Below, one piece after another: positions 8,494 to 50,945 of a stretch of 64,000 nt of DNA. Within the stretch, counting starts at the first letter, position 1. The number at the start of each line of letters is the position of its first letter. The DNA is from an uncultured Gammaproteobacteria bacterium (GTDB lineage Bacteria > Patescibacteriota > Patescibacteriia > UBA9934): the NCBI GenBank assembly GCA_964613815.1, contig CAZTKG010000002.1, forward strand, positions 23,737 through 87,736. The letters run 5' to 3'. Under the pieces are notes generated by a model. The model was given only the letters and a program-made list of their open reading frames with translations. It did no database searches and was not told the DNA's origin. A program made the position numbers and the translations under genes.

Positions 8494-9465
8494 ATGTTTT
8501 TGAAAGTTATTGGACAAATTGTGATGACGGGGGTGTTTGCCTCGGCGTTTCCGATGAATGCTGCGGTGTATGAGCATCAACTTGATGAGACGCTTTTGGA
8601 TCCTGGCGTGGTTTCTGCGGCTGAGCTTGCGAGTTTTGATGTGCAACTTCCTCTTGCTGATGAGCGCGAGATTCCTCGGCCGATGAAGGTGGATTTGGAT
8701 TCGCATGGGATTGTGACGACGGCGAAGAGTGCGCTTGTGCAGGATGTGCGGAGTGGGGCGGTGTTGTTTTCGAAGAATGCGTATGATGTGCGGTCGATTG
8801 GATCTGTAACGAAGTTGATGACGGCGATCGTGCTCTTACGTCAGGAAGTGGATTTGGATGCGTATGTGACGGTTGTTGGGGATGATTTTGTGTATGGGGG
8901 GCGGACGTATGTCGCGTTTGATGATGCGCTCCGGCTTGAGGATGTGTTTGCGGCTTCTGTGGTTGGGTCGGATAATACGGCGACGAGAGCTTTGGCGCGG
9001 CTTAGTGGACTTGAATATGAGGCGTTTATTGCGGAGATGAATGTGGTTGCTCGTGAGCTTGGAATGGATTCTTCCGTTTTTGTCGATCCGACAGGGATTG
9101 ATGCGGGGAATGTTTCTACGGTGTTTGATTTGACGCTTCTTTTGGAGGAAGCGGATGAATATGAGGCTTTGCGTGAATATATGAGGGCGCGAAATGTGAC
9201 GATCGTGCACTCATCTGGAATTTCTAGTTATATTGAGAGTACGAATCAGGTTTTGGAGTCGTTTTTGCATGAGGGGGAGTATGAAATTGTTGCTGGGAAA
9301 ACGGGGTACTTGCCTCAGGCTGGATATGTTTTGGCGACGACGGTTGATCGAGATGGGGATGATGTTCATGTGATCGTGCTTGGTGCGGATTCGAAGGATG
9401 ATCGGATGCATGAGGTGATTGGGCTTGCAGCTTGGGCTTATAAGGTATTTGAATGGCCAAATTAA
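8494..9465 (+). CDS. D-alanyl-D-alanine carboxypeptidase (peptidase S11, PBP5/6-like)
   Basis: SxxK active-site motif (SVTKLMT) and an SGN-like motif (SDNTAT), with an N-terminal signal-like segment. Confidence 0.8.
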   Translation: MFLKVIGQIVMTGVFASAFPMNAAVYEHQLDETLLDPGVVSAAELASFDVQLPLADEREIPRPMKVDLDSHGIVTTAKSALVQDVRSGAVLFSKNAYDVRSIGSVTKLMTAIVLLRQEVDLDAYVTVVGDDFVYGGRTYVAFDDALRLEDVFAASVVGSDNTATRALARLSGLEYEAFIAEMNVVARELGMDSSVFVDPTGIDAGNVSTVFDLTLLLEEADEYEALREYMRARNVTIVHSSGISSYIESTNQVLESFLHEGEYEIVAGKTGYLPQAGYVLATTVDRDGDDVHVIVLGADSKDDRMHEVIGLAAWAYKVFEWPN

Positions 9466-9958: not shown

Positions 9959-9970
9959 GTGATTGAATCA

Positions 9971-9999
9971 AAAAAACTGCCTCGAAGGCAGTTTTTTTG
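9971..9999. terminator. bidirectional intrinsic terminator (A-run, ctgcctcgaaggcag hairpin, T-run)
   Basis: Perfect hairpin between convergent genes, flanked by A7 and T7. Confidence 0.8.
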
Positions 10000-10000
10000 A

Positions 10001-10465
10001 TTAGCTGAGCCAGTGGAATATGAATAGGACGACGATGGCTTGGCCTAGGATGGCGTAACGGAGTTTGAAGTCTCCTGTGTGGTACGAAACCATGTTGTGG
10101 TAGTAGAAGTGGAGGTCGTGGAAACGTTTGAAAAGGCGTTTTTTGGAGAATTCGTAGACGCCGATCATGGCGTCTGGGAGGACGGATCCGACGATGGCTG
10201 CGAATAATGGAAGTGTTTCTACGTCGCCTTTTATGTTGAAGGCGGTGAGCATGACGACGACGGTGAAGAAGAAGTCTAGGGTTCCGTAGGTGATTGGAGC
10301 CTTCATGCTTTTGCGGGTTTTGAAGTCGTCTGCGAGTTTGCTGTCGCCGTGCGGGATCATGTCACAAACAAAATGCACGAGGAAGCCAAGGATGAAGCCG
10401 AGGATGGGGTTTCCGACGTGGAATCCGATAACGGTTCCGATGGCTGCATGGGTTGTGACGGTCAT
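10001..10465 (-). CDS. hypothetical integral membrane protein (possibly DUF457/YdjM-like metal-dependent hydrolase family)
   Basis: 154 aa with multiple TM helices and His/Asp-rich loops; C-ending codons typical of - strand genes here. Confidence 0.55.
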   Translation of the reverse strand: MTVTTHAAIGTVIGFHVGNPILGFILGFLVHFVCDMIPHGDSKLADDFKTRKSMKAPITYGTLDFFFTVVVMLTAFNIKGDVETLPLFAAIVGSVLPDAMIGVYEFSKKRLFKRFHDLHFYYHNMVSYHTGDFKLRYAILGQAIVVLFIFHWLS

Positions 10466-10580: not shown

Positions 10581-11051
10581 TCAGGAATCGAGGCTCGCCA
10601 TCGACGAGGACGACTTTTCCCGGAGACTTTTGTCGAGGGCGTGGTGGGTTGAGGTCCACGGCAGCTGTGAGTCTTCGTTTTGGGTCGTCTTTGATGTTCG
10701 CGGCGAGCCGTGGGACACTGGGAGCCGATTCTGTGGTCGGCTTTGCCTTGTGAGGCGGTTGAATGTTCCCGTTGTTCCGATGAGTGCCCCGAGGATGATG
10801 GCCTCTTCGATGGGGATGACCCAGAGCGGCGGGAAGGCCGCATTCAGGGCGACGTAGAGGGGGATGAAACATGCAATTTCGATCGCGAGAACGATCAAGA
10901 AAATTGCCGTTGCGATCGGTGAGGAGTTGGCACGAATGTGCCAAGCTGCCTCGCTTATCTCCTCTGCGGCGCGATCCCATCCCGCGCGGGTGAGTGCCCA
11001 GGCGCTTTTTAGGAGCTTGAACCTTCCTGGGCGGAGTTTTGTTGTCATGGA
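10581..11051 (-). CDS. hypothetical small membrane protein (C-terminal half low-complexity; possible frameshift)
   Basis: ATG at 11049 preceded by GGAGAAAT. The first ~100 aa are hydrophobic (FLIVLAIEIACFIPLYVALNAAFPP...). The C-terminal part looks like out-of-frame sequence, and three overlapping frames are open here. Confidence 0.35.
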   Translation of the reverse strand, partial: SMTTKLRPGRFKLLKSAWALTRAGWDRAAEEISEAAWHIRANSSPIATAIFLIVLAIEIACFIPLYVALNAAFPPLWVIPIEEAIILGALIGTTGTFNRLTRQSRPQNRLPVSHGSPRTSKTTQNEDSQLPWTSTHHALDKSLREKSSSSMASLDS

Positions 11052-11152
11052 TTTCTCCTTTGTATGACGTTGAAATATAGCATAAAAATGAGGTTTTGTC
11101 AAGTGAAAAATGGCTAAAGTTAACAAAATTTTACGAATATTGGGTATTTTTT

Positions 11153-11196
11153 CCTTGATACAAAAGTGGTCCGTACGGACCACTTTTGTATCAAGG
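11153..11196. repeat. 44-bp perfect palindrome, copy 1 (ccttgatacaaaagtggtccgtacggaccacttttgtatcaagg)
   Basis: Exact self-complementarity over 44 bp; a second copy lies at 11767-11810. Confidence 0.9.
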
Positions 11197-11275
11197 AGAA
11201 GGTTGTTTGAAATGATGTTTTTTGTGGCCTACGGTTGGTTTTATAACAAAAACACATCGTTACACGATGCGCTTT

Positions 11276-11352
11276 TGGTGGCTGGAGTGGGGCTCGAACC
11301 CACGACCTAAGGCTTATGAGTCCTTCGCTCTAACCAACTGAGCTACCCAGCC
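11276..11352 (-). tRNA. tRNA-Met (anticodon CAU; could alternatively be tRNA-Ile2/lysidine type)
   Basis: Cloverleaf GGCTGGG-TA-GCTC..GAGC-..CTCATAA..-GTGGGTTCGAGCCCCAC-TCCAGCC-A-CCA, with CCA encoded. Confidence 0.85.
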
Positions 11353-11468
11353 AGGTTTGATTTCTGCTCGATCGTATCAGTATTTTTGTGTGTCGACAAG
11401 ATGTCTAGGTTGTTGCCCGTTCTTTGCTCTATAGGATCGAGCTACGAAGGGCACTCCTCTTCGAGGAG

Positions 11469-11606
11469 TGGTGGCCAGAGAGGGGAGTGTTTGCTGCGCA
11501 AACGGAGTATCTGCGTCGTTCGGGTGTATTCAAGCGAGCTTGAATACACCGCTCTCTATCCTCGATACAGCGAACCCGGGTGAGGGTTCTCACCCCTCTC
11601 TGGCCA
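11469..11606 (-). ncRNA. tRNA-Leu 3'-end-derived inverted-repeat element (structured RNA or MITE-like)
   Basis: 18 nt identical to the tRNA-Leu 3' end (..CCCCTCTCTGGCCACCA on the - strand), with a 14-bp inverted copy 106 nt away. The interior holds three near-perfect hairpins. It lies between tRNA-Leu and tRNA-Met on the same strand. Confidence 0.4.
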
Positions 11607-11625
11607 TCAAATAAAAACATTCTTG

Positions 11626-11712
11626 TGGTGGCCAGAGAGGGGATCGAACCCTCACGGTATTGCTACCACGGGATTTTGAGTCCCGCGCGTCTACCAGTTC
11701 CGCCATCTGGCC
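11626..11712 (-). tRNA. tRNA-Leu (anticodon CAA), type II with a long variable arm
   Basis: GGCCAGATGGCGGAACTGGTAGACGCG..CTCAAAA..TGGTAGCAATACCGT..GGGTTCGATCCCCTCTCTGGCCACCA. 87 nt, with CCA encoded. Confidence 0.9.
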
Positions 11713-11766
11713 GTGCGCAGAGTGTATGAAAAAATGGTCGGTTTGTCAATGGATATTTGTTACTCT

Positions 11767-11810
11767 GCTTGATACAAAAGTGGTCCGTACGGACCACTTT
11801 TGTATCAAGG
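11767..11810. repeat. 44-bp palindrome, copy 2 (43/44 identical to copy 1)
   Basis: tgcttgatacaaaagtggtccgtacggaccacttttgtatcaagg. Followed by AGG, giving AAGGAG. Confidence 0.9.
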
Positions 11811-11838
11811 AGGCGGGGGGAAGGTTTTGTGAGGGGTG

Positions 11839-13020
11839 ATGGCTGCTGGTTGGGAATTTATGATAAGATCTTGGCATATGGATTACAATCAATTGGCTTT
11901 GGAAAAGCATGCAGAATTAAAGGGAAAGATTGGGCTTGAAGTGAAAAGTTCTTTGGCGACTCGAGAGGATCTTTCTTGGGCTTATACGCCTGGAGTTGCA
12001 GAGCCTTGTCGGCGGATTGCGGAGAATAAAGAGGATGTTTGGAAGTATACGGCTCGCGGGAATTGGGTGGCGGTTGTGAGTGATGGGTCAGCGGTGCTTG
12101 GACTTGGGGATATTGGGCCTGAGGCTGCGCTTCCTGTTATGGAAGGGAAGGCTGCACTTTTTAAAGAATTTGGAGGGGTTGATGCGTTTCCGTTGGTTTT
12201 GGATACGCAGGATGTTGATGAAATCGTCGCTATTGTGAAGGCGATGGCGCCTAGTTTTGGGGGGATAAATTTGGAAGATATTTCTGCGCCTCGGTGTTTT
12301 GAAATTGAGAAGCGATTGACGGAAGAGTTGGATATTCCGGTGTTTCATGATGATCAGCATGGGACGGCGGTAGTAACGCTTGCGGCGGTTTTGAATGCGC
12401 TTAAGGTTGTGGGGAAGAAGATTGAAGATGTGACTGTGGCGATGAGTGGGGCTGGGGCAGCTGGGATTGCTTGTGCGAAGATTTTGATTGATCAGGGGGT
12501 TGGGAATGTGATTATGGCTGATAGTCGTGGGATTTTGAGTTCTGATCGGGACAATTTGAATGATGCGAAGAAGGCGATGCTTGCGGTGACGAATCGGAAT
12601 GATCTATCTGGGAGTTTGACTGATGCGATGAGAGGAGTTGATGTGTTCATTGGGGTGAGTGCGCCTGGAGTGGTGAATACAGAAATGGTTCAGTCGATGA
12701 ATGAGGGGGCGGTGGTGATCGCGATGGCGAATCCTGTGCCGGAAATTATGCCAGATGAGGCGAAAGCTGGTGGGGCTGTGGTGGTTGCGACTGGGCGGAG
12801 TGATTTCGCGAATCAGGTGAACAATGTTTTGGCGTTTCCTGGGATTTTTCGAGGGGCGCTTGATGTGCGGGCTAAGGCGATTACGAGTGAGATGAAGCTT
12901 GCGGCGGCGAAGGCACTTGCGGATAGTGTTGAGGTGCCGACTGCGGAGAATATTATGCCGGATGTGCTTGATAAGCGTGTGAGTGAGCGGGTCGCGGAAG
13001 CGGTTCGTGAAGTAGCTTGA
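11839..13020 (+). CDS. NAD(P)-dependent malic enzyme (malate dehydrogenase, oxaloacetate-decarboxylating), short form
   Basis: YTPGVAEPC, VVSDGSAVLGLGDIGP, PVMEGKAALFKEFGG and a GAGAAGIA Rossmann motif. RBS GAGGGG sits before ATG 11839; ATG 11878 is an alternative start. Confidence 0.85.
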   Translation: MAAGWEFMIRSWHMDYNQLALEKHAELKGKIGLEVKSSLATREDLSWAYTPGVAEPCRRIAENKEDVWKYTARGNWVAVVSDGSAVLGLGDIGPEAALPVMEGKAALFKEFGGVDAFPLVLDTQDVDEIVAIVKAMAPSFGGINLEDISAPRCFEIEKRLTEELDIPVFHDDQHGTAVVTLAAVLNALKVVGKKIEDVTVAMSGAGAAGIACAKILIDQGVGNVIMADSRGILSSDRDNLNDAKKAMLAVTNRNDLSGSLTDAMRGVDVFIGVSAPGVVNTEMVQSMNEGAVVIAMANPVPEIMPDEAKAGGAVVVATGRSDFANQVNNVLAFPGIFRGALDVRAKAITSEMKLAAAKALADSVEVPTAENIMPDVLDKRVSERVAEAVREVA

Positions 13021-13093
13021 ATTTGTTGACAAAAATGGGGTGAAAATGTATATTGCGCCTGCGGGGTAGAGCAGTCTGGTAGCTCGTTGGGCT

Positions 13094-13733
13094 CGACCCG
13101 AAATTAGTTTGAACTTTTCATGACAAAGTTAAAAGGTGATATTGCGGAGCAAGCGGCGATCCTTCATGCTTTGAAACGAGGTTGGGAAGTGTTGATTCCA
13201 AACGGTGATCGACTTTCGTATGATCTTGTTTTCGATGTTCATGGTTCGCTTGTCAAAATTCAGGTCAAGTCTTCTTGGTTTGACCAGAACCGGAAAAATC
13301 ATGTTGTTGATTCTCGTAGAACTAAGACGAATCGTCGTATTATGAAGCGGGAATTGTATCAATTTGGTGATTTCGATTTTGCTCTCGTATATGTCGATTC
13401 TCTCGATATTTTTTATGTATTTCCTTTTGAAGAATTTGTCAGCTACAAAAGCGAGATTCACTTGGTAGAATCTGATAAACGTCAGAGAAAGCCGCGTTCT
13501 GCAGCGTTTCGTGATTCTTGGAACTTAATTTCATTATGGGCTGCGTAGTGCGAAAGCGTTACGTGACTCCTGTCAAATTCGGGGAAGCCTTTTGCAATGG
13601 TAATCCCGAGCCAAGCCCGCAAGGGAAGGTGTAGAGACTTGATGGCAGGCACCCTAACGTTTAGTCGAGGGTGAAGGTAAAGTCCAGACCACAAATTCAC
13701 ATTTGTGAAGCAGTTAAAGCTGTAGTTGGTATG
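13094..13733 (+). other. group I intron (self-splicing type) inside tRNA-fMet
   Basis: Core-like R and S elements (GUAGAGACUUGAUGG and AAGGUAAAGUCCAGACC, matching the P7 strands), a terminal G, a U at the exon -1 position, and an ORF in a 5' peripheral loop. Confidence 0.65.
13120..13548 (+). CDS. intron-encoded putative homing endonuclease, PD-(D/E)xK / Hjc-like fold (I-Ssp6803I-type)
   Basis: 142 aa. KGDIAEQAAILHALKRGWEV...YDLVFDVHGSLVKIQVKSS parallels the Hjc/Vsr-type E...D...(E/Q)VK motif. It lies wholly inside the tRNA-fMet intron. Confidence 0.55.
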   Translation: MTKLKGDIAEQAAILHALKRGWEVLIPNGDRLSYDLVFDVHGSLVKIQVKSSWFDQNRKNHVVDSRRTKTNRRIMKRELYQFGDFDFALVYVDSLDIFYVFPFEEFVSYKSEIHLVESDKRQRKPRSAAFRDSWNLISLWAA

Positions 13734-13805
13734 CATAACCCAAAGGTCACTGGTTCAAATCCAGTCCCCGCAACCAAAAGATCTTCTGCATGGCAGGGGA
13801 TTTTT

Positions 13806-13840
13806 TGTTTAAAAAAATAAGCCCGAGAATGGGCTTAGCG
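13806..13840 (-). terminator. intrinsic terminator for the - strand gene (taagccc-gagaat-gggctta, then U7 on the - strand); a T-run also precedes it on the + strand
   Basis: 7-bp stem flanked by A7/T6. The stop codon of the 13835-14431 gene sits inside the stem. Confidence 0.65.
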
Positions 13841-14431
13841 TGGCATGAGGGTGCTGGCGATGATTGTGGCCGCGTGACCTCCGATGTGGAGGGTTTTTGG
13901 TCTTGCCTTTCGTGGGAGGCGGGAATGTTCGATGGAAGTGATGGTGGTTTCGGCTTCGTCTGCGAGTGATTCGTGGAGGCGTGTGCGTAGGATGCGTTTT
14001 GCCTCTTTACGTGTGTAGCAGATGTAGACGACGGGATGGCCATCTGGGGTGAGGAAGGCGATGGTGAAGATTGCGGGAGGCTGTTGGCTTTCGGGGTTGA
14101 TGGTTACATCTGCGTAGAGGATGCATGGGGAGGTTCTTGGAAGGGGGCGCTGGATGGCCGTTCCTTCAATCATTGAGGCGAGCCAGAAGGCGGTGAAGCC
14201 TTGGATGTTGAGTTTGGTGGATGAGGCGTTTTCCGGGAGGCTTGAGTTGTCTACTTGGTTGAGACACTGTTTGATTCTTTTGGAATCGACGTGCCTTTCG
14301 ATGAAGTCTCGTGTTTGTCGTTTTGAATGACAGACGGTGATGCAGGGGGTTCTTCCGATGGCGCCGATGATGAGGACGTTGGGGGTTGTGGGGGACGGTG
14401 CTGTTGGGAGGGAGATGTAGGAGATTCTCAC
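13835..14431 (-). CDS. hypothetical protein (198 aa)
   Basis: GTG start at 14431 preceded by AAGGA, with a -35/-10 promoter upstream (TTGACA..AATATA). No recognisable family. Confidence 0.55.
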   Translation of the reverse strand: MRISYISLPTAPSPTTPNVLIIGAIGRTPCITVCHSKRQTRDFIERHVDSKRIKQCLNQVDNSSLPENASSTKLNIQGFTAFWLASMIEGTAIQRPLPRTSPCILYADVTINPESQQPPAIFTIAFLTPDGHPVVYICYTRKEAKRILRTRLHESLADEAETTITSIEHSRLPRKARPKTLHIGGHAATIIASTLMPR

Positions 14432-14461
14432 GATTGTCCTTTTGTGAATGAGCGAAGGGGT

Positions 14462-14491
14462 TATATTGTGTTATTTTTTTGGTTTTGTCAA
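14462..14491 (-). promoter_or_regulatory. sigma-70-like promoter on the - strand (TTGACA-N18-AATATA) upstream of the 198-aa gene
   Basis: Hexamers read on the - strand; ~30 nt upstream of the GTG start. Confidence 0.4.
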
Positions 14492-14927
14492 CTTCTGAAC
14501 AGCAAAACGCGGCCTAGGTGGGCCGCGGAGAGGGGAGAGGGAGAGAGGTCAGGGTCATGCCGATGGCGATGATGGTGAGACCGATGAGGATGGCTCCGTC
14601 GGGGATAATGAGTCCGCCGGCGGAGGTGGTGTAGAGCATTGTTTTGAGCACTTTTGGACCTTGAGGGTTTGGGTTGTGGTTTGAGTTTAGCAGGAATTAT
14701 AGAAATGGGAAGACGGTCCTGTGGGGGTCGTCAGTTGGTGGGGGTGGGGAAGATGAGGAGGCTGATCGCTGGCGTTGCGATGAATGCCGCGATCAGGTCC
14801 AGAAGTAATTCTGGGGTGATGAGTTCTATGGTTGCTCCCGGGAGCTGTTCGAGGAGGCGAAGGGGCTCGTCTCGTCGATGGGCTGCCGAAGGGGCTGGGG
14901 TTGGACCAGGCCCTTCGGTGAGGTGAG

Positions 14928-15407
14928 CTAGAATGCTCTGTCCCTCGGGGGGATGTTTCCGAGGTAGAGCTGTGTGTTCCGGGGGGTGAGTCCGGGGTTT
15001 TTCGTGGCGAGTTCTGCGCGGTGGGAGCGCAGAGAATCAGTTTCGAAGAACTCGACGTCGGCACCGGGGTTGGTGGTTTCGATGTCGATCTTGATGATCT
15101 CGATGCTGGCATCGAGATCGATCAGGCTGGTGCCGGTGATGGTGTGATAGGTCACATCATCGCCGTCAGTAGCGATCACCTGCATGGCCAGGGGGTCCCA
15201 GCCAAGGGTGATGTTGAGAGAGGGGATGAAGGGGAACAAAGAACCTTCTTTTGGGCTCTTGAGGAAGCGAAGGGATTTCGCTGCCTCGTTGAGCCATCGA
15301 GTTATGGCTCGATGGGGAAGCGTTTGGGGATGAAGGGGAGGTAGATCAGCGCGGTCCAGAGCACGAGGTCGATTGGTGATACCGAGGAGTTCGAGAAGGA
15401 TGTTCAT
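14928..15407 (-). CDS. hypothetical protein (159 aa)
   Basis: ATG preceded by AGAGG. Protein-like composition (…TDGDDVTYHTITGTSLIDLDASIEIIKIDIETTNPGADVEF…). The overlapping + ORF is low-complexity. Confidence 0.45.
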   Translation of the reverse strand: MNILLELLGITNRPRALDRADLPPLHPQTLPHRAITRWLNEAAKSLRFLKSPKEGSLFPFIPSLNITLGWDPLAMQVIATDGDDVTYHTITGTSLIDLDASIEIIKIDIETTNPGADVEFFETDSLRSHRAELATKNPGLTPRNTQLYLGNIPPRDRAF

Positions 15408-15462
15408 GTGAGCCTCTGAAAAGGCGAGGGGGTGAATCGTCTGTTCAGTAGGCTGCCGGAAG

Positions 15463-15684
15463 CTAGGTGTTCCGGCGTTTGAGTTTGGCGATGGTTTCCT
15501 GGAGGTTGACGATGAGGGTTTGAGTTCCCCATGTGGTCTCGATCCAGGCTAGGAGTTTGATTATTCCTTTGGAGGGGTGGTGTGGGTGGAAGGTTTCTGC
15601 GGCGAAGTCGATGACCTCGCCGTTTCGGATGATGTTGGCGGTGACGGTGTTGGGGTCAGGTGCGGCGATGGTGGCGAAGAGCAT
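15463..15684 (-). CDS. hypothetical small protein (73 aa)
   Basis: ATG preceded by GGAGAAAAC. Confidence 0.4.
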   Translation of the reverse strand: MLFATIAAPDPNTVTANIIRNGEVIDFAAETFHPHHPSKGIIKLLAWIETTWGTQTLIVNLQETIAKLKRRNT

Positions 15685-15772
15685 TTTGTTTTCTCCGAAG
15701 GGTTCAGCGGATGAGGAGCTAAGCGGTGCATTTTGCTTTGCTGTCTCAATGGGCTGCCGGAGCGTGACGAGG

Positions 15773-16033
15773 TCACGGTCCGGCGAGTCTCAGGCCGTTG
15801 CCTGGGAGAGGAAGGCGTGGATTTCCTTTCTTTCGTTGAGTTTGAGGTGTGGGAGGGGGTAGTAGTGTCCCCAGCCTTCGAATTCGATGAGCATGGCGGT
15901 GAAGAACGCGAAAGGGGGCGATCGGGGCGACGACGAGAGCGATGCCGGCAGCACCGAGAAGGGCGCCGGTTAGGGCGATTGCCATCAGGGATGAGGCGAA
16001 GAGGGCGAGGAGGGCGATGGCGATGGTGGTCAT
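15773..16033 (-). CDS. hypothetical small membrane protein (86 aa)
   Basis: N-terminal 40 aa strongly hydrophobic. No clear RBS. Confidence 0.25.
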   Translation of the reverse strand: MTTIAIALLALFASSLMAIALTGALLGAAGIALVVAPIAPFRVLHRHAHRIRRLGTLLPPPTPQTQRKKGNPRLPLPGNGLRLAGP

Positions 16034-16466
16034 GCGATATTCCGGTTCTGATGTGAGGGGGCTTGATCAAGATGTTTCTCATCTTTTCACGTCTATATAA
16101 TAGCACATTTTTGTGTTTTTGTCAAGGTGTTTTGGACAGTATTTATGTGTGTAAAATGGCTAATTTTGGCGTAGTTTTGGTTGTTTTTGTGGTTTTTTGT
16201 TAGGGTATTTTTGTGTGGAATTTGCGGAGGGGAGGATCTCTCCGCAAGGTCGAGATGGGGGGAGGGGTGATTTTGATTTCGAATGGATCCTTCGTTCCTC
16301 AGGATGATGTGGGGGAGGGGGGTCCCTGCCTGTGGCAGATCTGGCTTTGCCAGATTTCGACTCCGCGTTGCTTCGCTCAGGATGACATGGAAAGAGAGGG
16401 GGGATTTTGAAGGTGTTCACATGTTTTTTGGTTGGGAGGTTTGAGCTTGATATACTAGAGATCCAT

Positions 16467-17243
16467 ATGGCACATATTGTTTCTGTTGTGAATCAAAAGG
16501 GTGGAGTTGGAAAATCGACCACGTCGGTTAACTTGGCCTCTTTTTTGGCTCATTTGGGGAAGTATGTGCTTCTCGTGGATTTGGATCCTCAGGGAAATGC
16601 TTCTAGTGGGCTTGGGCATGATATTTCGGATACGCTTGGGACGTATCATGCGATAACGCAGGCGCATCCGGTCGATAAATTGATTGTTCGGACGAATCAG
16701 GATGGATTGATGCTTTTGCCAACAGGGCCGGATCTTGCGGGGGCTAGTGTGGAGCTTGTGAGTCAGTTCAATCGGGAGAAGAAGCTTTATGATGCGTTGA
16801 TGGGGATTCGGAATGATTATGATTATGTGCTTATTGATAATCCTCCCAGCTTAGGAATGTTGACGATTAATGGGATGGTTGCGGCGGATAGTGTGCTTAT
16901 TCCTGTGCAGGCGGAGTATTATGCGCTTGAGGGGCTTGGGCAGCTCATGCATACGATTGGGATGATTCGTTCTAGTGTGAAGCCGGATTTGCAAATTTTG
17001 GGTGCGGTGATTACGATGTTTGATAGTAGAACGAAACTTTCGAATCAGGTTTTGGAGGAGTTGTACCAGCATTTTCCAGAGAAGATTTTCCGTAGTGTGA
17101 TTCCTCGGAGTGTACGACTTGCGGAGGCTCCTAGTTTCGGGCAGTCGATTTTGCATTATGACTCTTCGAGTAAGGGGTGTAAGGCGTATGAGCGACTAGC
17201 GCGTGAATTTTTGATTCGTGAAGGACAGCTTTCAATTTCTTAA
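16467..17243 (+). CDS. parA: chromosome partitioning ATPase ParA/Soj
   Basis: Deviant Walker A (VNQKGGVGKSTTSVNLA), DLDPQGN, and ParA-type Walker B. Confidence 0.9.
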   Translation: MAHIVSVVNQKGGVGKSTTSVNLASFLAHLGKYVLLVDLDPQGNASSGLGHDISDTLGTYHAITQAHPVDKLIVRTNQDGLMLLPTGPDLAGASVELVSQFNREKKLYDALMGIRNDYDYVLIDNPPSLGMLTINGMVAADSVLIPVQAEYYALEGLGQLMHTIGMIRSSVKPDLQILGAVITMFDSRTKLSNQVLEELYQHFPEKIFRSVIPRSVRLAEAPSFGQSILHYDSSSKGCKAYERLAREFLIREGQLSIS

Positions 17244-17251
17244 ACTATTGT

Positions 17252-18106
17252 ATGGCAAAGGTTCAAGGTGGGCTCGGAAGGGGGCTGTCGGCACTTATTC
17301 CGCAGACAATTACGGAAACTCCAGAGGCTCAAGTGATGGAGGCGATGGTTGGGGTTTTGCGGGAGGTTGCTCCTGCTTCGATTGTTCCCAATCCGCAACA
17401 GCCACGGAAGTATTTTTCTGCTGAAGAATTGCAGGAGCTTGTTGCATCTATTAAGCTGCATGGAATTTTGCAGCCTTTGGTGGTTACGGAGGTTGATGGG
17501 GGGAATTATGAATTGATTGCTGGTGAGCGGCGGCTTCGAGCGAGTCAGGCTGCGGGGCTTTCTGTTGTGCCGGTGATTGTGCGAAGCGCGAATGCACAGG
17601 AGAAGTTGGAGCTTGCGCTTGTAGAGAATGTGCAGCGACATGATTTGAATGCGATTGAAGAAGCGTATGCGTATCAGGCTTTGATGGATCAGTTTTCTAT
17701 GACGCATTCACAGATTGCGGAGCGCGTGGGGAAGAGCCGGCCGGTGATTGCGAATACGATTCGGCTTTTGGGGCTTGATGAGTATATTTTGGAGGCAATT
17801 ATGGATGGGCGGATTTCGCGTACGCATGGACGTGCGCTTTTGACAGAGAGTGATCCGGCACGACGGAAGTCGATGTTTGAGCAGATTTTGCAAGGAGGGG
17901 TGCCGACACGAGAGATTGAGATTCGGGCGAACTCTCCTCGGAAGCGGGCGACAGATCCGAATGTGGCGGCGCTTGAGGCGGAATTGAGAGAAGTGTTTGG
18001 GACAAAGGTGCAGGTGCATCATAAGATGGGGAGGGGGAAGGTGACACTTCATTTTTATACGAAGGAGGATATGCGGGGGCTTTTGACGAGATTGAAAGGG
18101 TGTTAG
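17252..18106 (+). CDS. parB: chromosome partitioning protein ParB/Spo0J
   Basis: KGGLGRGLSALIP N-terminal box, GERRLRAS ParB box, and an HTH region. Confidence 0.9.
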   Translation: MAKVQGGLGRGLSALIPQTITETPEAQVMEAMVGVLREVAPASIVPNPQQPRKYFSAEELQELVASIKLHGILQPLVVTEVDGGNYELIAGERRLRASQAAGLSVVPVIVRSANAQEKLELALVENVQRHDLNAIEEAYAYQALMDQFSMTHSQIAERVGKSRPVIANTIRLLGLDEYILEAIMDGRISRTHGRALLTESDPARRKSMFEQILQGGVPTREIEIRANSPRKRATDPNVAALEAELREVFGTKVQVHHKMGRGKVTLHFYTKEDMRGLLTRLKGC

Positions 18107-18133
18107 AAAAAAATGGGCAATTGCCCATTTTTT
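18107..18133. terminator. bidirectional terminator (A7-tgggcaa/ttgccca-T6) between parB and rel
   Basis: Perfect 7-bp stem flanked by A and T runs. Confidence 0.75.
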
Positions 18134-19613: not shown

Positions 19614-19687
19614 ATAGATACGATAGCGGAGATAGGCGGATTCGGCTAGATGTTGCGGGTTTTGGTGAAAAAAATAGCGCTTGTGCG

Positions 19688-21940
19688 CTATTTTTTCTTT
19701 TTGGCTCGTTTTTTCTCGAGGATTTCGAGGGCGAGTTTTCTATCGACGGTCGTTGGGTCGATTTTCTTTGGGATGGAGGCGTTTAGCTTGCCGTTTGTGA
19801 CGTATGGACCGAATCTTCCGTTTTTGACGAGAAGGGGTTCTTTGGAGTTGGGGTCTTCGCCGAGTTCGGCGATTGGTTTTGCGGCTTCTTTCTTTTGTTT
19901 GTCTGCTTCTTTGATGAGTTTGATGGCTTCTGGTTCGTTTACGGTGAATACGGTGAGTTCTTCTGGGATGGAGGCGTTGATTTTGCCGGCTTTAATGTAT
20001 GGACCGTATGGGCCTAGTTGCGCGGTGATAACAGTGCCGTCTGGCATTTTGCCGACTTCTCTTGGGAGTTCGAAGAGAGGGAGGACTTCTTCTAGGGTGC
20101 ATGTTTCGAAGTGCATGCCGTCTAGAAGGGAGACGGATTTTGGCTTGTTGATCTTTTCTTTGCGATCTTCTTCGCTCCAGTGGCCGAGTTGTGCGTATGG
20201 GCCAAAGCGACCGACACGGACGACGATAGGAAGTTTTGTGATGGGATCTTTGCCTAGTTCGCGGTCTTTTAAGACGTCTTCTCTTGAGATGTCTTTTGTT
20301 TTTTTCTCGAGATTTTTGTGGAAGGGTTTGTAGAAATCGTTGAGTGCTGGAACCCAGTCTGTTTTGCCGTGAGCGACGTGGTCCAGGGTTTGTTCCATGT
20401 TTGCGGTGAATTCGTAGTTTACGATGTTTGGAAAATGTTCTACGAGAAGGTCGCTTACAATGCAGGCGATGTCTGTTGGTTCGAGTTTTTTGTTGTCATC
20501 TCGTTCGACGTAGCCGCGGTTGATGATGGTGTGAATGGTTGGGGCATAGGTTGATGGGCGGCCGATACCGTGTTCTTCCATGACTTTGACGAGGGTTGCG
20601 TCGGAGTAGCGTGCTGGAGGTTCTGTGAAGTGCTGTTTTGCTTCGACGGTTTTGTCTTTTACTTTGTCACCTTCTTTACATTCTGGGAGGATTTTTTCTT
20701 TGGTGGATCGGTAGACTTTCATGTATCCATCAAAAACGATCGTACTGCCGTTTGCGCGGAAGGTGTAGTCTTTTGCGTTGAGGTTGATGCCGGTTCGTTC
20801 GAGTTTGGCTGGAGGCATTTGAGTTGCGACGGTTCGGCTCCAAATGAGTTTGTAGAGTTTTTTCATGCCGGCGTCGGCGGTTTTGAGATCGTCTGGCGTG
20901 ACGGTGACATCGGTTGGGCGAATGGCTTCGTGGGCTTCTTGTGCGCCCTTACTTTTGGTTGTGTAGGTTTGGATGCCTTTTGCGTAGTCTGCGCCGAATG
21001 TTGTGCTGATGTAGGCTTGTGTGTCTTTGAGGAATGAATCGGCGAGATTCATTGAGTCGGTACGCATGTAGGTGATTTTTCCGGTTTCGTAGAGTTTTTG
21101 CGCGACGGTCATGGTTCGTTTGGCGCCGAAACCGAGTTTGTTGTTTGCTTCTTGTTGAAGCAGGGAGGTGGTGAGGGGCTTTGGTGGGGATTTTTTGGCG
21201 TGTTTTTGATCTACGGATTCCACGGTAAATTCGACACCTTTAAGTGCTTTTGTGATTTTTTTTGCTTCTTCTTCTGTTTGGATTTGGAGTTTTTGGACTT
21301 TTTTCCCTTTGATTTTGGTGAGTTTTCCTGGGAATTCTTGTTTGTCTTTTTCGAAAAGGCCTTCGATGGTCCAGTATTCTTCGATGTTGAAAGCTTGCCG
21401 TTCTCGTTCACGTTCTACGATGAGACGGGTCGCGACGGACTGGACGCGGCCAGCTGATAGTCCTCTACGAACTTTTTTCCAGAGAAATGGGGAGAGTTCG
21501 TATCCGACGAGACGGTCAAGGATTCTTCGGGCTTGTTGCGCCTCGACGAGATCCATTTTGAGATGGTCTGGTTTTTCGAGGGCTTTTTCGATGGCGGATT
21601 TGGTGATTTCGTGGAAGACGATGCGTTTTGCCTTTTTTGGATCTTGCTTAAGAACATGGGCGATATGCCATGCGATTGCTTCTCCTTCGCGGTCTCCGTC
21701 CGTTGCGAGGTAAATTTCTGTGGCGTCTTTTGCGGCTTTTTTGAGGGCGGTTACTTTTGGCTTTTTATCTTCTGGGACAACGTAGGTTGGTTCGAAGCTG
21801 TGTTCGATATCTACGCCCATGTCTTTTTTGGGGAGGTCGCGGATGTGGCCAAAAGAAGAAATGACTGTGTAGCCTTTTCCGAGGATTTTTTTGATGGTCT
21901 TTGCCTTTGTGGGAGACTCTACGATGAGGAGTTTGGACAT
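19688..21940 (-). CDS. topA: DNA topoisomerase I
   Basis: Toprim N-terminus (LLIVESPTKAKTIKKILG), active-site region, and C-terminal GRFGPY repeats. Confidence 0.9.
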   Translation of the reverse strand: MSKLLIVESPTKAKTIKKILGKGYTVISSFGHIRDLPKKDMGVDIEHSFEPTYVVPEDKKPKVTALKKAAKDATEIYLATDGDREGEAIAWHIAHVLKQDPKKAKRIVFHEITKSAIEKALEKPDHLKMDLVEAQQARRILDRLVGYELSPFLWKKVRRGLSAGRVQSVATRLIVERERERQAFNIEEYWTIEGLFEKDKQEFPGKLTKIKGKKVQKLQIQTEEEAKKITKALKGVEFTVESVDQKHAKKSPPKPLTTSLLQQEANNKLGFGAKRTMTVAQKLYETGKITYMRTDSMNLADSFLKDTQAYISTTFGADYAKGIQTYTTKSKGAQEAHEAIRPTDVTVTPDDLKTADAGMKKLYKLIWSRTVATQMPPAKLERTGINLNAKDYTFRANGSTIVFDGYMKVYRSTKEKILPECKEGDKVKDKTVEAKQHFTEPPARYSDATLVKVMEEHGIGRPSTYAPTIHTIINRGYVERDDNKKLEPTDIACIVSDLLVEHFPNIVNYEFTANMEQTLDHVAHGKTDWVPALNDFYKPFHKNLEKKTKDISREDVLKDRELGKDPITKLPIVVRVGRFGPYAQLGHWSEEDRKEKINKPKSVSLLDGMHFETCTLEEVLPLFELPREVGKMPDGTVITAQLGPYGPYIKAGKINASIPEELTVFTVNEPEAIKLIKEADKQKKEAAKPIAELGEDPNSKEPLLVKNGRFGPYVTNGKLNASIPKKIDPTTVDRKLALEILEKKRAKKKK

Positions 21941-32633: not shown

Positions 32634-35600
32634 ATGAGATTTAAGGAGTGGTTACAATTTGGATTTCGATGGTTACCGATGGTTGCTGTTTTTGGCTTTT
32701 TGTTGTGTGGCGAGGTGGCATTTGCACAGGATCTTGATGCGGTTGCGACTGAGTCTGGGCTTGGACAGGCGGATTTGTATGCGACGCTTGCTCGGATTGT
32801 TAATGTCTTTTTAGGATTCCTGGGAATCATTTTGGTTTGTATTGTTGTTTATGCGGGATTTTTGTGGATGACGGCAGGGGGGAACACCGAGCAAATCACG
32901 AAGGCAAAAAAATGGGTTATCAATGCTTCAGTTGGATTATTGATTATTTTATCTTCTTGGGGTATTACGACATTTATTTTGAATAAATTGATGGGTGCGG
33001 CGGGATATACGAGTGATGGTTCCGGAGATGATGGAGGGGGGGGATCTGGTGGAGGAATTCCTGGAGGTGATGTTGCGACATTTAGGGTGAATGATTTTAG
33101 TCCTGAAGGGGAGGTTTCTATTCGTAATATTGAAGTTACCATTACATTTAATGACAAGCTTGATCCTGATTCGATTGATGGGAATGTCGTTGTGACGGAT
33201 TTGGATTCTGGAGATACGGTGGATGGGACGTTAGAAGTGAGTGCGAATAAGGTGACTTTTACGCCTTTGGCCACTTGTGATGAGCCGAATGAAGATTATA
33301 ATTGTTTTGATGAATTTACGAATTACAGCGTTGCGGTTTCGACGAGTGTTTTGGATGATGATGGAACGAGTTTGAGTTGTTCAATTTATCCTTGTACGGC
33401 TGAATTTACAAGTGGGGATGTTGTTGATACGGACGGACCTGAGGTTGAGTTTGTTTATCCTGAGAGCGGGGAGCGAATTGAGCCTTACACATCTGTGTTT
33501 GAACAGGTGTATGCCGAGGATGACTATGCGCTTTCTGGTGCAGAATTTGCGATTGATGATGAGACTGATGTGTTAGAAGCTGTGAGCGTGGATGATAATG
33601 CATCGAGTGCGTATATAGAGACGTATTGGGATACGACGGATTACGATACGGAGAGTTACTATCGGTTATATGCGACGGTGACGGATTTGGCCGGGAATGA
33701 GAATACGGATTCTGTACGTGTGTATATTGATCCTGCACATTGCTATAATGACGTGATGGATGAGGATGAGGAAGATGTTGATTGTGGAGGGAGTTGTGGG
33801 GCCTGTGATGGAGATGAGTGTTCAGAAGATGGAGACTGTGCGAGCGGGTCATGCGTTGATAATGTTTGTGTTGCTGAGCCGATGATTTCGTCGATTAGTC
33901 CTGAGGATGGGGCCGTGGGCACGCTCGTGACAATTAATGGAGAGAATTTTGGATCGCGAACTGGGACGGTTTATTTTGAGGACGGTGATGGTGCGTTGTT
34001 GGAGGCTGGGACTTCTGCGATTTGCGGGGATAGTTGGGATGATGATGAGATTGTGATTGAGGTTCCGGAGGGGGCTGCGGATGGGGCGATTACGGTTGTT
34101 GCGACGAATGGATATGATGACGCAACGAATGATGATAGGGGTCCTGTGATTGATGATTTTGAGGTAAATAGTGTTGAGCGGCCTGGTATTTGTCGGATTT
34201 ATCCGGATGATGGGGAGAGTGGAGATGAAGCGACGGTGTATGGGGTGAATTTTACGAGTGAAGCAGACATGAGTGTTTACTTTGGCACTGATGAGGTGCG
34301 TACGTTTGGAGATTGGGATTCTGACTCCGTTGTTGTGACAGTGCCTTCGCTTGAAGATGGGGATTATGATGTGATGGTTGATGTTGATGGGGTTGAGTCT
34401 AATACGGTTGAGTATGTGGTTGAGGCATCTGTGGAAGATGGGCCTATTTTAAGCGGACTTTCTCCTTCGAATGGAGGAATTGGTCAATATGTGACGTTGC
34501 AGGGGTCTGATTTTGGAAGTACTCAGGGGCTCGTATGGATTGTGAGTCAGAGTACTGGAAATGCTGCGTATGCTTCGGTTGCGTTTCCGGATGAGTGTGG
34601 GGTGGATTTTTGGTCTGACGATGAGGTTATTGTGAAGATTCCTTCTGAATATACGAATGGGCAAGCAATTGAGTATACGACGCATGATGTGTATGTAGAT
34701 GCGGCGTATTTGGATGAGGATTCGAATGCTCTTGATTTTACGATTACGACAAGTGATCCGAGTCCAGGGCTTTGTGCGCTCAGTCCGGATGAGGGAGATG
34801 TTGCGGCTGACAGTGGGCTTCAAGTGACGCTTTATGGTGAGAATTTTGGGTCTGATGTTGGGTCTGTTCGGTTTTACAATGAGGTTGAGGCTGCGGTGGA
34901 CTCATGGAGTGAGGGAGAGGTGGTAGTGACTGCTCCTAGTTCTGCTTTGACAGGGCCCGTGACACTGTATTCTGCGGATGATGATGAAAGTAATACCGTG
35001 AATTTTGAGGTTGGTGAAGGAGATTCTGATGATGAAGAAGAGGCGACTGAGGGGGGATATGCTTGGTATTTTTCGACTGGAGATATTCCAGATTCTCCTA
35101 GTGTGCTTGTGGAATGTACGGACACTTCTGTAAGTGGCGTGCCGAATAGTCGATTTTTGAGTGATGAGGGCGCTTGTTTGAATGCGGATGTGTTTGTGCG
35201 TTTTGCGAGTAGTGTGTACGAGTCGACTGTTCAGGATGGAGAGGGAATTCTTGTGGAAGAATGTAGCGATTCTAGCTGCGATGATGTTGTCGCGACCGTT
35301 CCTGGATCGGTGACTTTGGCTTGGGGCCGTGCGTTGACGTGGTCCGTGGATGGGGGTTATGAATCTGGACTGTTCAAGGCTGATACGTCGTATCAGGTAA
35401 CGATTTTGAGTACGGTTGTTTCCACGGATGGTGTTGAGCTTGGGAGTGATGTGTCTTGGAAATTTAGCACAGGGGCTGCGGATATGGATTGCGCGATTGA
35501 GAAGATTTATGTCACGCCTGAAACGGCAGATGCAGATTCGTATGGACAGGACCAGGAATTTTTGTCAAGCGCTGGAACGTTTGACTGTCAGGTGCTCAGT

Positions 35601-38600
35601 TCTGATTCGTTTGATTGGGATTGGCAGATTGATGAGTCTTATGCCTCTATATCTGCTGGAGGGTGCGATACGATGAGTGGTCAGGAGTGTGCGCTCGCGA
35701 CAGCACTTGCGGAAGGCGAGGCTGATGTCCTTGTGACAGAAAGTGATAGCGGTCTTTCTGAAGGCGCTTTGTATCGGATTGATTTTAGTGATCCTGCAGT
35801 GAGTGATTGGTGGCCGAGTTGTGATGAGGCTTGTACGAATGCGGATGTCGGCGCTTCGTTTGATACATCGATTAACATGGACAGTAGTCGAGGTATGACC
35901 GCAGAAGATGCTGGTGCGTTCATGGTGTATGCGTGTGATAATGAGCTGTGCAGTTCTTATTCAGATTTGTTTGCTTCTAGTGCGACGTGTACGGATTATG
36001 CGGATGATGGAGGGTGTGTTGAGTTGTCTGCGAATTTTCTTGATCGAATGGACAGCGCGACGTTTTATCGTGCAACGATTTCAGGGAATTTGATTTCGAC
36101 GAGCGGGGTTGCGATTATTGGGACGAATTACGGCGACGATTTTAGCTGGACGTTTGGTGTGCGGGATGATGCGAGTGAATGTAGTGTTGATTCGATTGAC
36201 TTGTCTCCAGGAGATTCAAAGCATACGTATATTGGTAGCCGGGAGGTGTTTAGTGTGAATGCGTATGGTCCACGAGATGGATGTAGCACGACTGGACAGA
36301 AGCTTGTTTCTAGTGATTATGATTGGGACTGGGATGATCCGATTGAGAATGATGCCGATGTTTCTGAATGGGTGAAAGTGAATAGTAGCTTGATTGATGC
36401 GGATGCAGATGGGCCTGTTGAAGGCTGTACGTCTTCGTGTTTGCCTCAGGGGACGTCTACGTATGATGCAATTTGTGGAGATGGTGTCATTGGAGTTGCT
36501 GAAGATTGTGATGACGGAAATGCAAGTGATGGGGATGGATGCAGTTCGATTTGTTTGCGTGAAGGAGGGGATGTTGTTGGAACTTGTGGAGATGGAAGTT
36601 TGGATCGTGTTGCAGCGGATGGGGTTTATGATCAAGGGGGTGGAGAGGATTGTGATGATGGTGGCAATTCTGATGGAGATGGATGTAGCTCTGCTTGTTT
36701 GAACGAGGGCTCTTCTGGTACGACTCAATGTGGTAATGATGACATTGCTTATGATTGGCAGATTGGAGGGGAGGAGTGTGAGGATGCTGATGGAAATGCG
36801 AGTGGGGGTGATGGGTGTAGTGCGAATTGTTTGAATGAGGGTTCTGTTGCGATTACGGATGTTTATGGGGAGTGTGGAGATGGTGTGCTTGATACGCCGT
36901 ATGAGAGTTGTGATGATGGAAATACATCGGACGGGGATGGATGCGGCTCTACGTGTGTTCGAGAGGGAGGTGATGTTGTTGGGATTTGTGGGGATGGAAA
37001 CGTGGACCGCATTGCTGATGATGGGACGTATGCGCAAGGGGGAGGTGAAGACTGTGATGATGACGAGGGATGTAGTGATGATTGTTTGTGGCTTGGCTCT
37101 TCTTACAACTATGACGACGTTTCTGTTTGTGGCGATGGGGTGACGGGGGCTGGAGAGTATGACATGTGTGAATCTGGTGTACTTGGTGATCTTTCTGTTG
37201 ATAGTCTGCAGGTGGCGGAAATTTCGGATTTGGCGCCAACTCAGGTCGATAGCGCGACAAATATTTCAACATCAACTGTTCGAGTTGAGCTTGATGCGTA
37301 TGGGCTCTGGGATGAGACAGAGATGATTTTGTATTGCGGTGCAGAGACGGGGGCTGATTGTGAGGATACGACGTATGGCGTTGGTGAAAGTGGGTGTTGT
37401 AGTGCTCGTCCGACCGTGTCTTTGTATCCGTCTGGATCTGCCGTTTGTACGAATACGGCGTTTAGCGCTACGTTTAGTGAGAAGATTGATGTAGATACGC
37501 TTGAGGATCATGTGTTTGTGCGGCTTGATATTTCTAGTGCTTCTGATGGTGCGTGTCCGAGCAGTCATGATGTGTATGGGGATTCTGCGAGTGATGGATC
37601 TGTCGCGACTGGTTGGGATCGTTTTTGGGCATTTTTGATGCCTTGGACGAATGCGGCGAGTGATGGGGATTGTTTGATGGAGGTGACTGGATTTGATCAA
37701 ACGGCAGTTAGTGATACGGAGTATAAGGTCTCCATTACAACGGCATCTATATTGGAGGCTGAAGCGGATTATGAGCTTGTGGTGGTTGGTGATTCTGATG
37801 TTTTGGATGGAGATAAAGAGGGGGTTTTGAGTGCGCTTGGAGTGAGTATTGATGGGACAGCTTCTGGCACCGGAGAGATTGCGCAGGCGTTTACAACTGG
37901 GGAAGGAATTTGTTTGTTTGATATGGCGGTTGCGGAAGATACGGATGAAGATAGTCCTGGGTATTATCGAACGCAAAAAGAGTCGCATGGATTTTTGGCG
38001 ACGGCTTATTCTGTTGATGGAGGGGTTCAACAGGAGATTCAGTCCATGACTGGGGTGTATGAATGGTCATGGAGCGATTGGACTGTTGACGATGAAGATG
38101 TTTTTGAGATCGCGAGTACTGATGATGAGGCGGATGTTTCCGCGCTTGATGAGGATGGTGAGGCTAATGTGGTCGCGAGTGCCGTCATTACGGTGGATGC
38201 GACGGATGTTGATGAGGTTGGGCGTGTCGTTTCTGGAACAGAGGATGTCACCGCGGTGCTTTGTAATAACATTTGGCCTGTTATTGATGATTTCCCGTTT
38301 GTTGATGATTCTACATCTGCGATTAGTGGGGTTTCTGAAGGGTATGGCTGGATGAATTTTTCTACCTATTATTGTCGAGATGCGGGAAGTTCAGACAGTC
38401 GAGATGATGATTTGCCTGAACTTGAGGTTCTTGTAACGCCTTCTGTTGAATCTGAGACGGTCATGAAGGAATACTTTTTCCAGGTTCAGGATGGTTCTGG
38501 AGATGCAATTGGTGTTCGTATTGCCTCGAATGAGGAATATTTGACTCCGTTGGCTTGGTATGAGGATCGTGGATTTAGCGGATCGCCTTCTGAGCTTCAG

Positions 38601-50915: not shown

Positions 50916-50918
50916 GGA

Positions 50919-50945
50919 AATACCGAGCTAAGCTCGGTATTTATT
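50919..50945. terminator. bidirectional terminator (ataccgagc-taa-gctcggtat + T-rich)
   Basis: Perfect 9-bp stem between convergent genes. Confidence 0.75.

Follow-up and report, generated by a model that had tools for sequence, protein, structure and literature searches.

Bidirectional intrinsic terminators carry an A-tract on one side of the stem-loop and a T-tract on the other, and they are found after the 3' ends of genes, often between convergent genes (TransTermHP paper, PMC1852404). Terminator stems can also be formed by the DNA uptake sequences (USS/DUS) of Neisseria and Pasteurellaceae, words of 9-12 nt with about 1000 copies, which occur singly and within genes as well (PMC1852404). 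Terminators with a long stem have been described too, such as TerR of pLS20, which has a 15-bp stem above the U-tract and resists processive antitermination (PMC10325885). Another class is that of the repetitive extragenic palindromes (REPs), with REP doublets forming hairpins (REPINs) and bacterial interspersed mosaic elements (BIMEs), which are short, extragenic, present in many copies near gene 3' ends and linked to the REP-associated tyrosine transposase (RAYT) (Bertels & Rainey 2011, PMC3116915). In this work, a 44-bp perfect palindrome was analysed which is present twice, around a group of tRNA genes, in a stretch of 64,000 nucleotides (contig CAZTKG010000002.1, positions 23,737 to 87,736; hereafter the window). 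Judging from its sequence and its location, the palindrome probably represents a multi-copy family of bidirectional Rho-independent terminators, perfectly palindromic and specific to their lineage, from uncultured marine Candidatus Uhrbacteria (Patescibacteria, candidate phyla radiation).

Anatomy of the palindrome

The 44-mer CCTTGATACAAAAGTGGTCCGTACGGACCACTTTTGTATCAAGG at 11153-11196 (copy W1) is exactly its own reverse complement, with 0 mismatches. The second copy (W2, 11767-11810) starts 614 bp further on and matches W1 in 43 of 44 positions, the sole mismatch being the outermost left base, G for C. The symmetry and the second copy had both been reported in the initial annotation of this DNA, and both were confirmed, as was its statement that the copies enclose tRNA-Met, tRNA-Leu and an odd tRNA-derived element, which is supported by ARAGORN, Rfam and the analysis of folds and repeats. 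No match to the 44-mer was obtained in 100 shuffles of the window, and a 20-nt search with the half-site found it in the 64 kb within W1 and W2 only. The similarity between the flanks of the two copies is not significant (p about 0.14-0.2), therefore the repeat is essentially the palindrome alone.

The core of the 44-mer reads AAAA-GTGGTCC-GTAC-GGACCAC-TTTTGTAT, that is, an A-tract, a 7-bp GC-rich stem, a tetraloop and a T-tract. The stem GTGGTCC/GGACCAC has five G-C pairs among its 7 bp and the loop GTAC has 4 nt, in agreement with the stem of about 5-12 bp and the loop of 3-8 nt that are usual in intrinsic terminators. W1 consists of the A-tract (11162-11165), the stem (11166-11172), the loop (11173-11176), the second stem arm (11177-11183) and the T-tract (11184-11187), followed by GTAT, with TTTTGTAT covering 11184-11191. 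W2 shows the A-tract at 11776-11779, the stem-loop-stem at 11780-11797 and the T-tract at 11798-11801. Neither copy has a strand of its own: the 5' A-tract and the 3' T-tract are mirrored in W2 and in all six intact copies found, with a U-tract available on both strands. The initial annotation had stated that no U-run follows the 44-mer and that the copies are not canonical intrinsic terminators. The first statement is literally true but misleading, since the T-run and its mirror A-run sit inside the palindrome, beside the GC-rich core; the second is not supported, given the presence of A-tract, 7-bp stem, 4-nt loop and T-tract, and hairpins of like build at gene ends in this genome and in relatives.

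The symmetry of the 44-mer reaches 9-11 bp past the A/T tracts. Predicted folding energies of the RNA hairpin are -36.6 kcal/mol (minus strand) and -41.4 kcal/mol (plus strand) for W1, with z about -10, and -33.6 and -37.0 kcal/mol for W2. Both window copies have CAAGG at their end, followed by AG. The AAGGAG so created, which had been pointed out initially, is indeed there in both, but it does not form a meaningful ribosome-binding site: no start codon is located at a usable distance in any copy, the two copies of scaffold L106 (described below) have AAGCAA and AGGCAG instead, and the motif is merely the outer arm of the repeat. A promoter within the palindrome, considered because of its TTGATA hexamers, was ruled out by inspection, as there is no -10 element at workable spacing.

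The window locus corresponds to scaffold_2 (579 kb) of assembly ERZ23498905 in the European Nucleotide Archive. The arrangement of W1 and W2 is not an assembly artefact, because four independent assemblies from different samples (L084, L085, L086 and L087) agree over an identical stretch of 910 bp (10991-11900). On the other hand, the palindrome systematically fragments short-k assemblies: Logan contigs built with k=31 break at its centre, and contigs end at or within a few bases of a centre (L088-L092, L099-L101 and some others), which is expected because a perfect palindrome longer than k lies in the de Bruijn graph.

A family of copies in the genome

Additional copies were searched for by translating the palindrome in three frames and looking in protein databases for spurious open reading frames (ORFs) spanning it. 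A word-index protein search led to L097 (ERZ23498677 scaffold_248) and a profile search to L106 (scaffold_644 of the same assembly as the window locus); copies can be found in this way only where the gene caller spanned them, so the count is a lower bound. L097 carries two perfect copies, 8778-8821 and 10087-10130, 1309 bp apart. L106 carries two intact copies, 10354-10397 (L106_1) and 14197-14240 (L106_2), 3843 bp apart, and a decayed one at 14097-14127, 70 nt from the intact variant L106_2, which keeps 20/22 positions of the left half and has lost the right outer arm. Both scaffolds share the GC content and the unusual, extreme GC skew of the window; hence, they very probably come from the same genome.

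In total, three scaffolds of like composition, sampled over about 120 kb, hold six intact copies and a decayed one, in agreement with the many copies that are usual in REPs. The suggestion of a repeat family made at the outset is therefore well founded, with four extra intact copies and a decayed one on two other scaffolds, and the motif is not restricted to the window locus. No isolated half-sites were found, nor any copies in relatives. The contiguous, unbiased 80 kb around the window hold one pair only (W1/W2), pointing to no more than some tens of copies in a genome.

All six intact copies form three local pairs, 614, 1309 and 3843 bp apart. In the alignment, the 42 inner bp are identical in five of the six, the consensus being a 48-bp palindrome, CTCCTTGATAC...GTATCAAGGAG, while the flanks are unrelated. 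The sixth copy, L106_2, is still a perfect 48-bp palindrome by virtue of two compensatory arm changes. The same outer-arm variant is present on one arm only in W2 and L106_1, and on both arms in L106_2.

Outside this genome, the exact 20-mer core gave 0 matches in the species-representative genome collection, 0 in viral contigs and one unrelated high-GC chance match (L003) in the JGI metagenome contigs; phage BLAST gave no match, and the 44-mer family was not found in the relatives examined. In 92 kb, there are no sub-words of >=11 nt outside the palindromes and 8-mers stay at background frequency.

Location at gene ends and related hairpins

In five of the six intact copies, a stop codon or the 3' end of a tRNA precedes the palindrome by 18-79 nt, as would be expected of a terminator. 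W1 lies 79 nt after tRNA-Met (minus strand); the L097 copies lie 23 nt after the stop of an MBL-fold/beta-CASP (RNase J-like) gene (8778-8821) and 22 nt after that of a 202-aa gene (10087-10130); and the L106 copies follow the stops of an 893-aa gene (10354-10397) and a 310-aa gene (14197-14240) by 18 and 39 nt, respectively. For each of these five copies, the distance to the preceding 3' end is shorter than that to the following start codon, and a recognisable promoter comes after most of them. An operator role, which had also been proposed, is thus unlikely, since these copies stand just after gene 3' ends and not at promoters.

Moreover, a census of hairpins in the window revealed that the design of A-tract, stem and T-tract recurs at gene ends. 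A hairpin between convergent genes, AATCAAAAAAACTGCCT...AGGCAGTTTTTTTGATT, is located at 9966-10002, and a 26-bp perfect palindrome, AAAAAATGGGCAATTGCCCATTTTTT, at 18108-18133, in the convergent junction of parB and relA. Other gene-end hairpins are present at 19669-19696 and 50918-50942, and the one at 63080-63115 abuts the 3' end of tRNA-Asp. The 44-mer is the longest terminator-type hairpin of the window (arms of 22-26 nt) and the most stable (-34 to -41 vs -16 to -28 kcal/mol).

The same design was observed in relatives. Homologues of the S11 peptidase of the window are annotated as Candidatus Uhrbacteria/Patescibacteria, the nearest about 55% identical, and two Uhrbacteria (L093 and L095) conserve the synteny of the locus (S11 peptidase, Sm_multidrug_ex, 153-aa gene ... 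parAB) together with tRNA-Met, tRNA-Leu(CAA) and tRNA-fMet. In both, a hairpin of the form ACAAAAA-stem-loop-stem-TTTTTGT stands right after each tRNA, and in L095 one of them is the exact positional counterpart of W1, with tRNA-Met(-) on one side and the conserved 153/154-aa gene (44% identity) on the other.

The build of the palindrome, the number of its copies, where these stand relative to genes, their conservation and the lack of isomers are shown by the data; termination itself is inferred. A transcript from either strand would fold into GUGGUCC-GUAC-GGACCAC followed directly by UUUUGUAU, releasing RNA polymerase, and the mirror A-tract would provide the U-tract for the opposite direction. 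The A/U tracts and the outer 9-11 nt could then zip into a stem of 20-24 bp. At the window locus, the promoter at 11749-11721 would drive tRNA-Leu, the odd element and tRNA-Met, and W1 would end this unit and could also shield the promoter of the next gene (11102-11074). W2 could act as an insulator against stray or antisense transcription, or it may be a left-over or duplicated copy.

Several observations weigh against a family of terminators. W2 is located between divergent promoters, and neither of its flanks contains the 3' end of a gene: the tRNA promoter is 18 nt away on one side and the malic-enzyme gene, which is read in the other direction, 67 nt away on the other, W2 being upstream of both. 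The U-tract of the 44-mer is short (four U, then GUAU) in comparison with the 5-7 U of the other terminators of the genome. Covariation over the six copies amounts to two compensatory pairs, both in one copy, and shuffles do as well (136/500). Finally, a terminator needs neither 42 identical bp at unrelated loci nor a symmetry extending 9-11 bp beyond the tracts; therefore, something else keeps the copies alike, be it recent spread, gene conversion or a sequence-specific partner. The pairing, the near-identity and the placement at junctions of conserved and variable DNA are not accounted for by termination, and any reason for the pairs is one that we infer.

Alternative explanations

The palindrome could be primarily a selfish or recombinogenic repeat, similar to REPs or to miniature inverted-repeat transposable elements (MITEs) or serving as portable homology, which has spread or been copied locally and marks insertions or rearrangements. 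Terminator activity would then be a by-product or a later co-option, and the pairs would have been left behind by duplication, or by integration into a copy already in place. This explanation, a real possibility but a doubtful one, fits the identity of the 42 inner bp in five of six copies despite unrelated flanks, the existence of a decayed copy in a family absent from relatives, and the grouping of all six intact copies in three local pairs. The outer-arm variant, on one arm in W2 and L106_1 and on both in L106_2, also looks as if arms had been exchanged. Furthermore, the L097 pair encloses a segment of about 1.35 kb with a weak Fic-like gene in it. In the relative L105 this segment is missing, and 4 nt separate the end of the conserved MBL-fold/beta-CASP (RNase J-like) gene from that of a 188-aa gene, the homologue of the 202-aa gene of L097 (E = 2e-20). 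Likewise, both window copies are at junctions of conserved tRNAs with lineage-specific genes (the 155-aa gene and the malic enzyme). Nevertheless, the Pfam annotation of the sampled DNA (roughly 120 kb) shows no transposase, Y1/RAYT or integrase gene, the copies are not flanked by target-site duplications, and the half-site is not itself a hairpin, unlike the REPs of REPINs. What the window pair encloses, namely the tRNAs, is ancestral and not inserted, and no structural isomers were found in seven assemblies (four for the window locus and three for the scaffold_248 locus), at the level of assemblies only. The relatives are also distant, with about 55-61% protein identity, because of which insertion and loss are not separable.

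A second pair of direct repeats, unrelated to the 44-mer and also containing terminators, was observed at 57605-57686 and 58429-58510 (82 nt, about 89-95% identical), where it flanks a single minus-strand RibD_C gene (57694-58419). These repeats, the bracketed segment of L097 and the window junctions keep the explanation by a REP-like mobile element or recombination scaffold under consideration. Apart from that, the Fic-like gene of L097 is followed, within the bracketed segment, by two minus-strand hairpins of related sequence (ACCACGT...ACGTGGT, then a T-run; 9020-9180), about 120 nt apart and with a TTGACA hexamer after one of them, which may delimit a small RNA; Rfam gave only sub-threshold microRNA-type hairpin matches in the region between the two palindromes.

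The duplex could instead be chiefly a hairpin for RNase III processing or for transcript stabilisation, for instance in the maturation of the tRNA 3' trailer. Duplexes of 20-24 bp are of the size of RNase III substrates, and the full stem has this length, about two helical turns; the genome encodes RNase III (59623-60345, minus strand) and W1 follows a tRNA operon. However, the remaining copies come after ordinary protein-coding genes, the placement of the A/T tracts right at the foot of the GC stem is a signature of termination and not of processing, and W2 is probably not transcribed from any recognisable promoter. As the chief function this is unlikely, yet it is compatible with a bidirectional terminator, and processing or stabilisation may accompany termination.

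Another proposal is that the copies are portable recombination or insertion sites of a hairpin-based, integron-like cassette system with no known integrase, in which segments are captured at a resident copy. Such a system would account for the fact that the copies are strictly paired and identical and have chimeric outer arms, for the bracketed insert of L097, and for the location of both window copies at junctions between conserved and lineage-specific DNA. On the contrary, no integrase is present in the annotated flanks, and the copies form pairs only and no cassette array. We regard it as quite unlikely.

It is very unlikely that the palindrome is the site of a dimeric DNA-binding protein (operator, insulator, parS-like or nucleoid-associated), with the pairs allowing looping, even though its perfect two-fold symmetry, its identical sequence at unrelated loci and its pairing would suit such a protein. 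At 44-48 bp, it far exceeds the usual operators. Its positions track gene 3' ends, whereas the next promoter is at a variable distance of 18-84 nt, and there are no isolated half-sites. Besides, L106_2 changed both arms with the pairing kept, which suits a hairpin better than a fixed protein specificity. Regarding partition sites, a search of the 64-kb window for canonical parS (TGTTTCACGTGAAACA), with up to 3 mismatches allowed, gave none, although parAB (16467-18106) is 5 kb off; canonical parS is also absent from the 21-kb parAB loci of two relatives, hence this absence is not specific to this genome. An identity with parS was discarded, as the palindrome has no resemblance to the 16-bp TGTTNCACGTGNAACA.

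Lastly, the idea raised at the outset that the orientation-less copies recombine and invert or excise the tRNA segment as a cassette is highly improbable: the 43/44 identity and perfect symmetry of the copies formally allow recombination in either sense, the orientation of tRNA-Leu(CAA) varies among relatives and a plus-sense fragment of the tRNA-Leu 3' end persists at 11580-11609, but the window locus has one arrangement, with 100% identity over the 910 bp in its four assemblies, the second locus is invariant in its three, no recombinase (invertase or integrase) gene is found nearby in the annotated flanks, the relatives with other tRNA orientations lack the palindrome, and the L106 pair brackets ordinary co-directional genes. 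A hix/gix-type inversion system was rejected on the same grounds, with no recombinase and a single orientation in 4 + 3 assemblies. The orientation of tRNA-Leu(CAA) is plus in L095 and minus in L093 and the window; it follows from this variation that inversions of tRNA modules have taken place at the locus in the course of evolution, and this happened without involvement of the 44-mer.

The tRNA locus and its surroundings

The first gene of the minus-strand tRNA unit is tRNA-Leu(CAA) (11626-11712, minus strand; ARAGORN, Rfam tRNA 58.1 bits) and the last is tRNA-Met(CAU) (11276-11352, minus strand; ARAGORN, Rfam 66.5 bits). A promoter-like sequence, TTGACA-17-TACACT (11721-11749, minus strand), matches the consensus in 10/12 positions and ends about 8 nt before the 5' end of tRNA-Leu; it is a sequence match only. 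A weak one, TAGACA-17-AATACT (11379-11407, minus strand), is located upstream of tRNA-Met and could be an internal promoter, its 9/12 match being within the chance range. Beyond W1, the promoter-like TTGACA-17-TATATT (11074-11102, minus strand; 11/12, with TG before the -10), whose -35 is 51 nt from W1, would serve the gene of a 155-aa predicted membrane protein (10581-11048, minus strand). This gene is lineage-specific, with no homologue beside the tRNAs in relatives.

The odd structured element occupies 145 nt (11468-11612), and its strand is taken as minus from its place inside the tRNA unit. Its left end (11468-11486, minus sense) reproduces the last 19 nt of tRNA-Leu, CCA included, without a mismatch, and its right end (11580-11609) is a 30-nt copy, 26/30, of the T-arm/acceptor/discriminator region of tRNA-Leu in opposite sense. 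These inverted copies pair with each other in a closing stem of 13 bp, and the insert between them contains several hairpins, among them an inner 28-bp near-palindrome at 11523-11550; the fold has a z of -6.5 (-6.3 on the other strand). No significant Rfam family was obtained (RtT, 17.1 bits, E = 1.8; sub-threshold microRNA-type hairpins), and no further copy was found in the sampled DNA. The element may be the scar of a tRNA-Leu inversion or a processed tRNA-like RNA. In the tyrT operon of E. coli, the last roughly 19 nt of the tRNA, including CCA, are repeated downstream within the operon. The likeness with those tRNA-linked repeats and their RtT RNA is one of principle only, since here the two copies are inverted and close a structured element of 145 nt, and the Rfam match to RtT is not significant.

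On the other side of W2, the malic enzyme gene (11878-13020, plus strand) is oriented away from the tRNA unit. In the species-representative genome collection, the homologues nearest to it belong to Bacillota, with <=64% identity, and not to Patescibacteria, which suggests that the gene was horizontally acquired. For the same reason it was of no use as a handle for finding syntenic relatives. Downstream of it (13026-13776), a group I intron (Rfam 81 bits, 13521-13707) interrupts the anticodon loop of an initiator-type tRNA-Met(CAU) and carries an ORF for a PD-(D/E)XK (PDDEXK_5) endonuclease (13120-13548); the exons of this tRNA are at about 13062-13096 and 13728-13776, and a consensus promoter is at 13026-13054. 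The region that follows (13800-16200) has a higher GC content (0.55-0.58) and dense GC-rich hairpins, no Pfam family, and genes on which the gene callers of different assemblies disagree; it may be foreign or non-coding DNA.

Regarding composition, the GC skew of the window averages +0.35 and reaches +0.51 per 2 kb, and it is positive even over the block of minus-strand genes at 18-27 kb. The extreme skew is also present in L097 and L106, and the relatives L093 and L095 have only +0.12. Farther on, a giant ORF of 3328 aa (32634-42620) contains repeated Cys-rich motifs of the CGDG type, and it is followed at 43305-44835 by genes with DxDxDG repeats (calcium-binding, thrombospondin-type-3-like).

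Significance

To our knowledge, the delimitation of transcription units in Patescibacteria is poorly understood, and the literature yielded no account of repeat families for their tiny genomes, which is not meant as a systematic claim. A conserved terminator-type palindrome of 44-48 bp is a ready-made, testable terminator module for this lineage and a marker for tracking rearrangements between strains. It is also a caution for assemblers, given that short-k assemblies break at its centre. Should the pairing reflect insertion at hairpins, which is the minority explanation, these sites would offer streamlined genomes a simple route of gene acquisition.

Comparison with known systems

Among the described systems, the DNA uptake sequences resemble the 44-mer in that many terminators of a genome have one and the same sequence in their stems. 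A DNA uptake sequence was ruled out here, given that neither the half-site nor its sub-words are enriched outside the palindromes in the 92 kb. The attC sites of integrons are also palindromic and bracket small, often accessory, gene units, as the L097 pair does with the Fic-like gene. Unlike attC, the 44-mer has no R/L boxes (RYYYAAC/GTTRRRY) and no extrahelical bases, and its window pair brackets ancestral tRNAs.

The family resembles REPs more closely, with many extragenic copies near gene 3' ends, clustering, and both intact and decayed members. REPs are imperfect palindromes with a conserved 5' head. In contrast to a REPIN, the 44-mer is one perfect palindrome whose 22-nt half-site is not self-complementary, its copy number appears low, and no RAYT is present in the sampled annotated genes.

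With TerR, the 44-mer shares a potential stem of unusual length in a terminator that is canonical in other respects, and one of its copies ends a tRNA operon, but its extra length comes from the pairing of the A/U tracts and the outer arms. Operons of tRNA genes are often subject to antitermination, and we know of no antitermination system in this organism.

The closest likeness is with the bidirectional intrinsic terminators, which also consist of a GC stem-loop flanked by an A-tract and a T-tract after gene 3' ends. The 44-mer differs from the usual ones in its perfect symmetry past the tracts, in the presence of the same 42-48 bp at unrelated loci and in the location of W2 between divergent promoters. 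The element therefore combines two known kinds, a bidirectional intrinsic terminator and a REP-like dispersed palindrome, in a poorly studied lineage.

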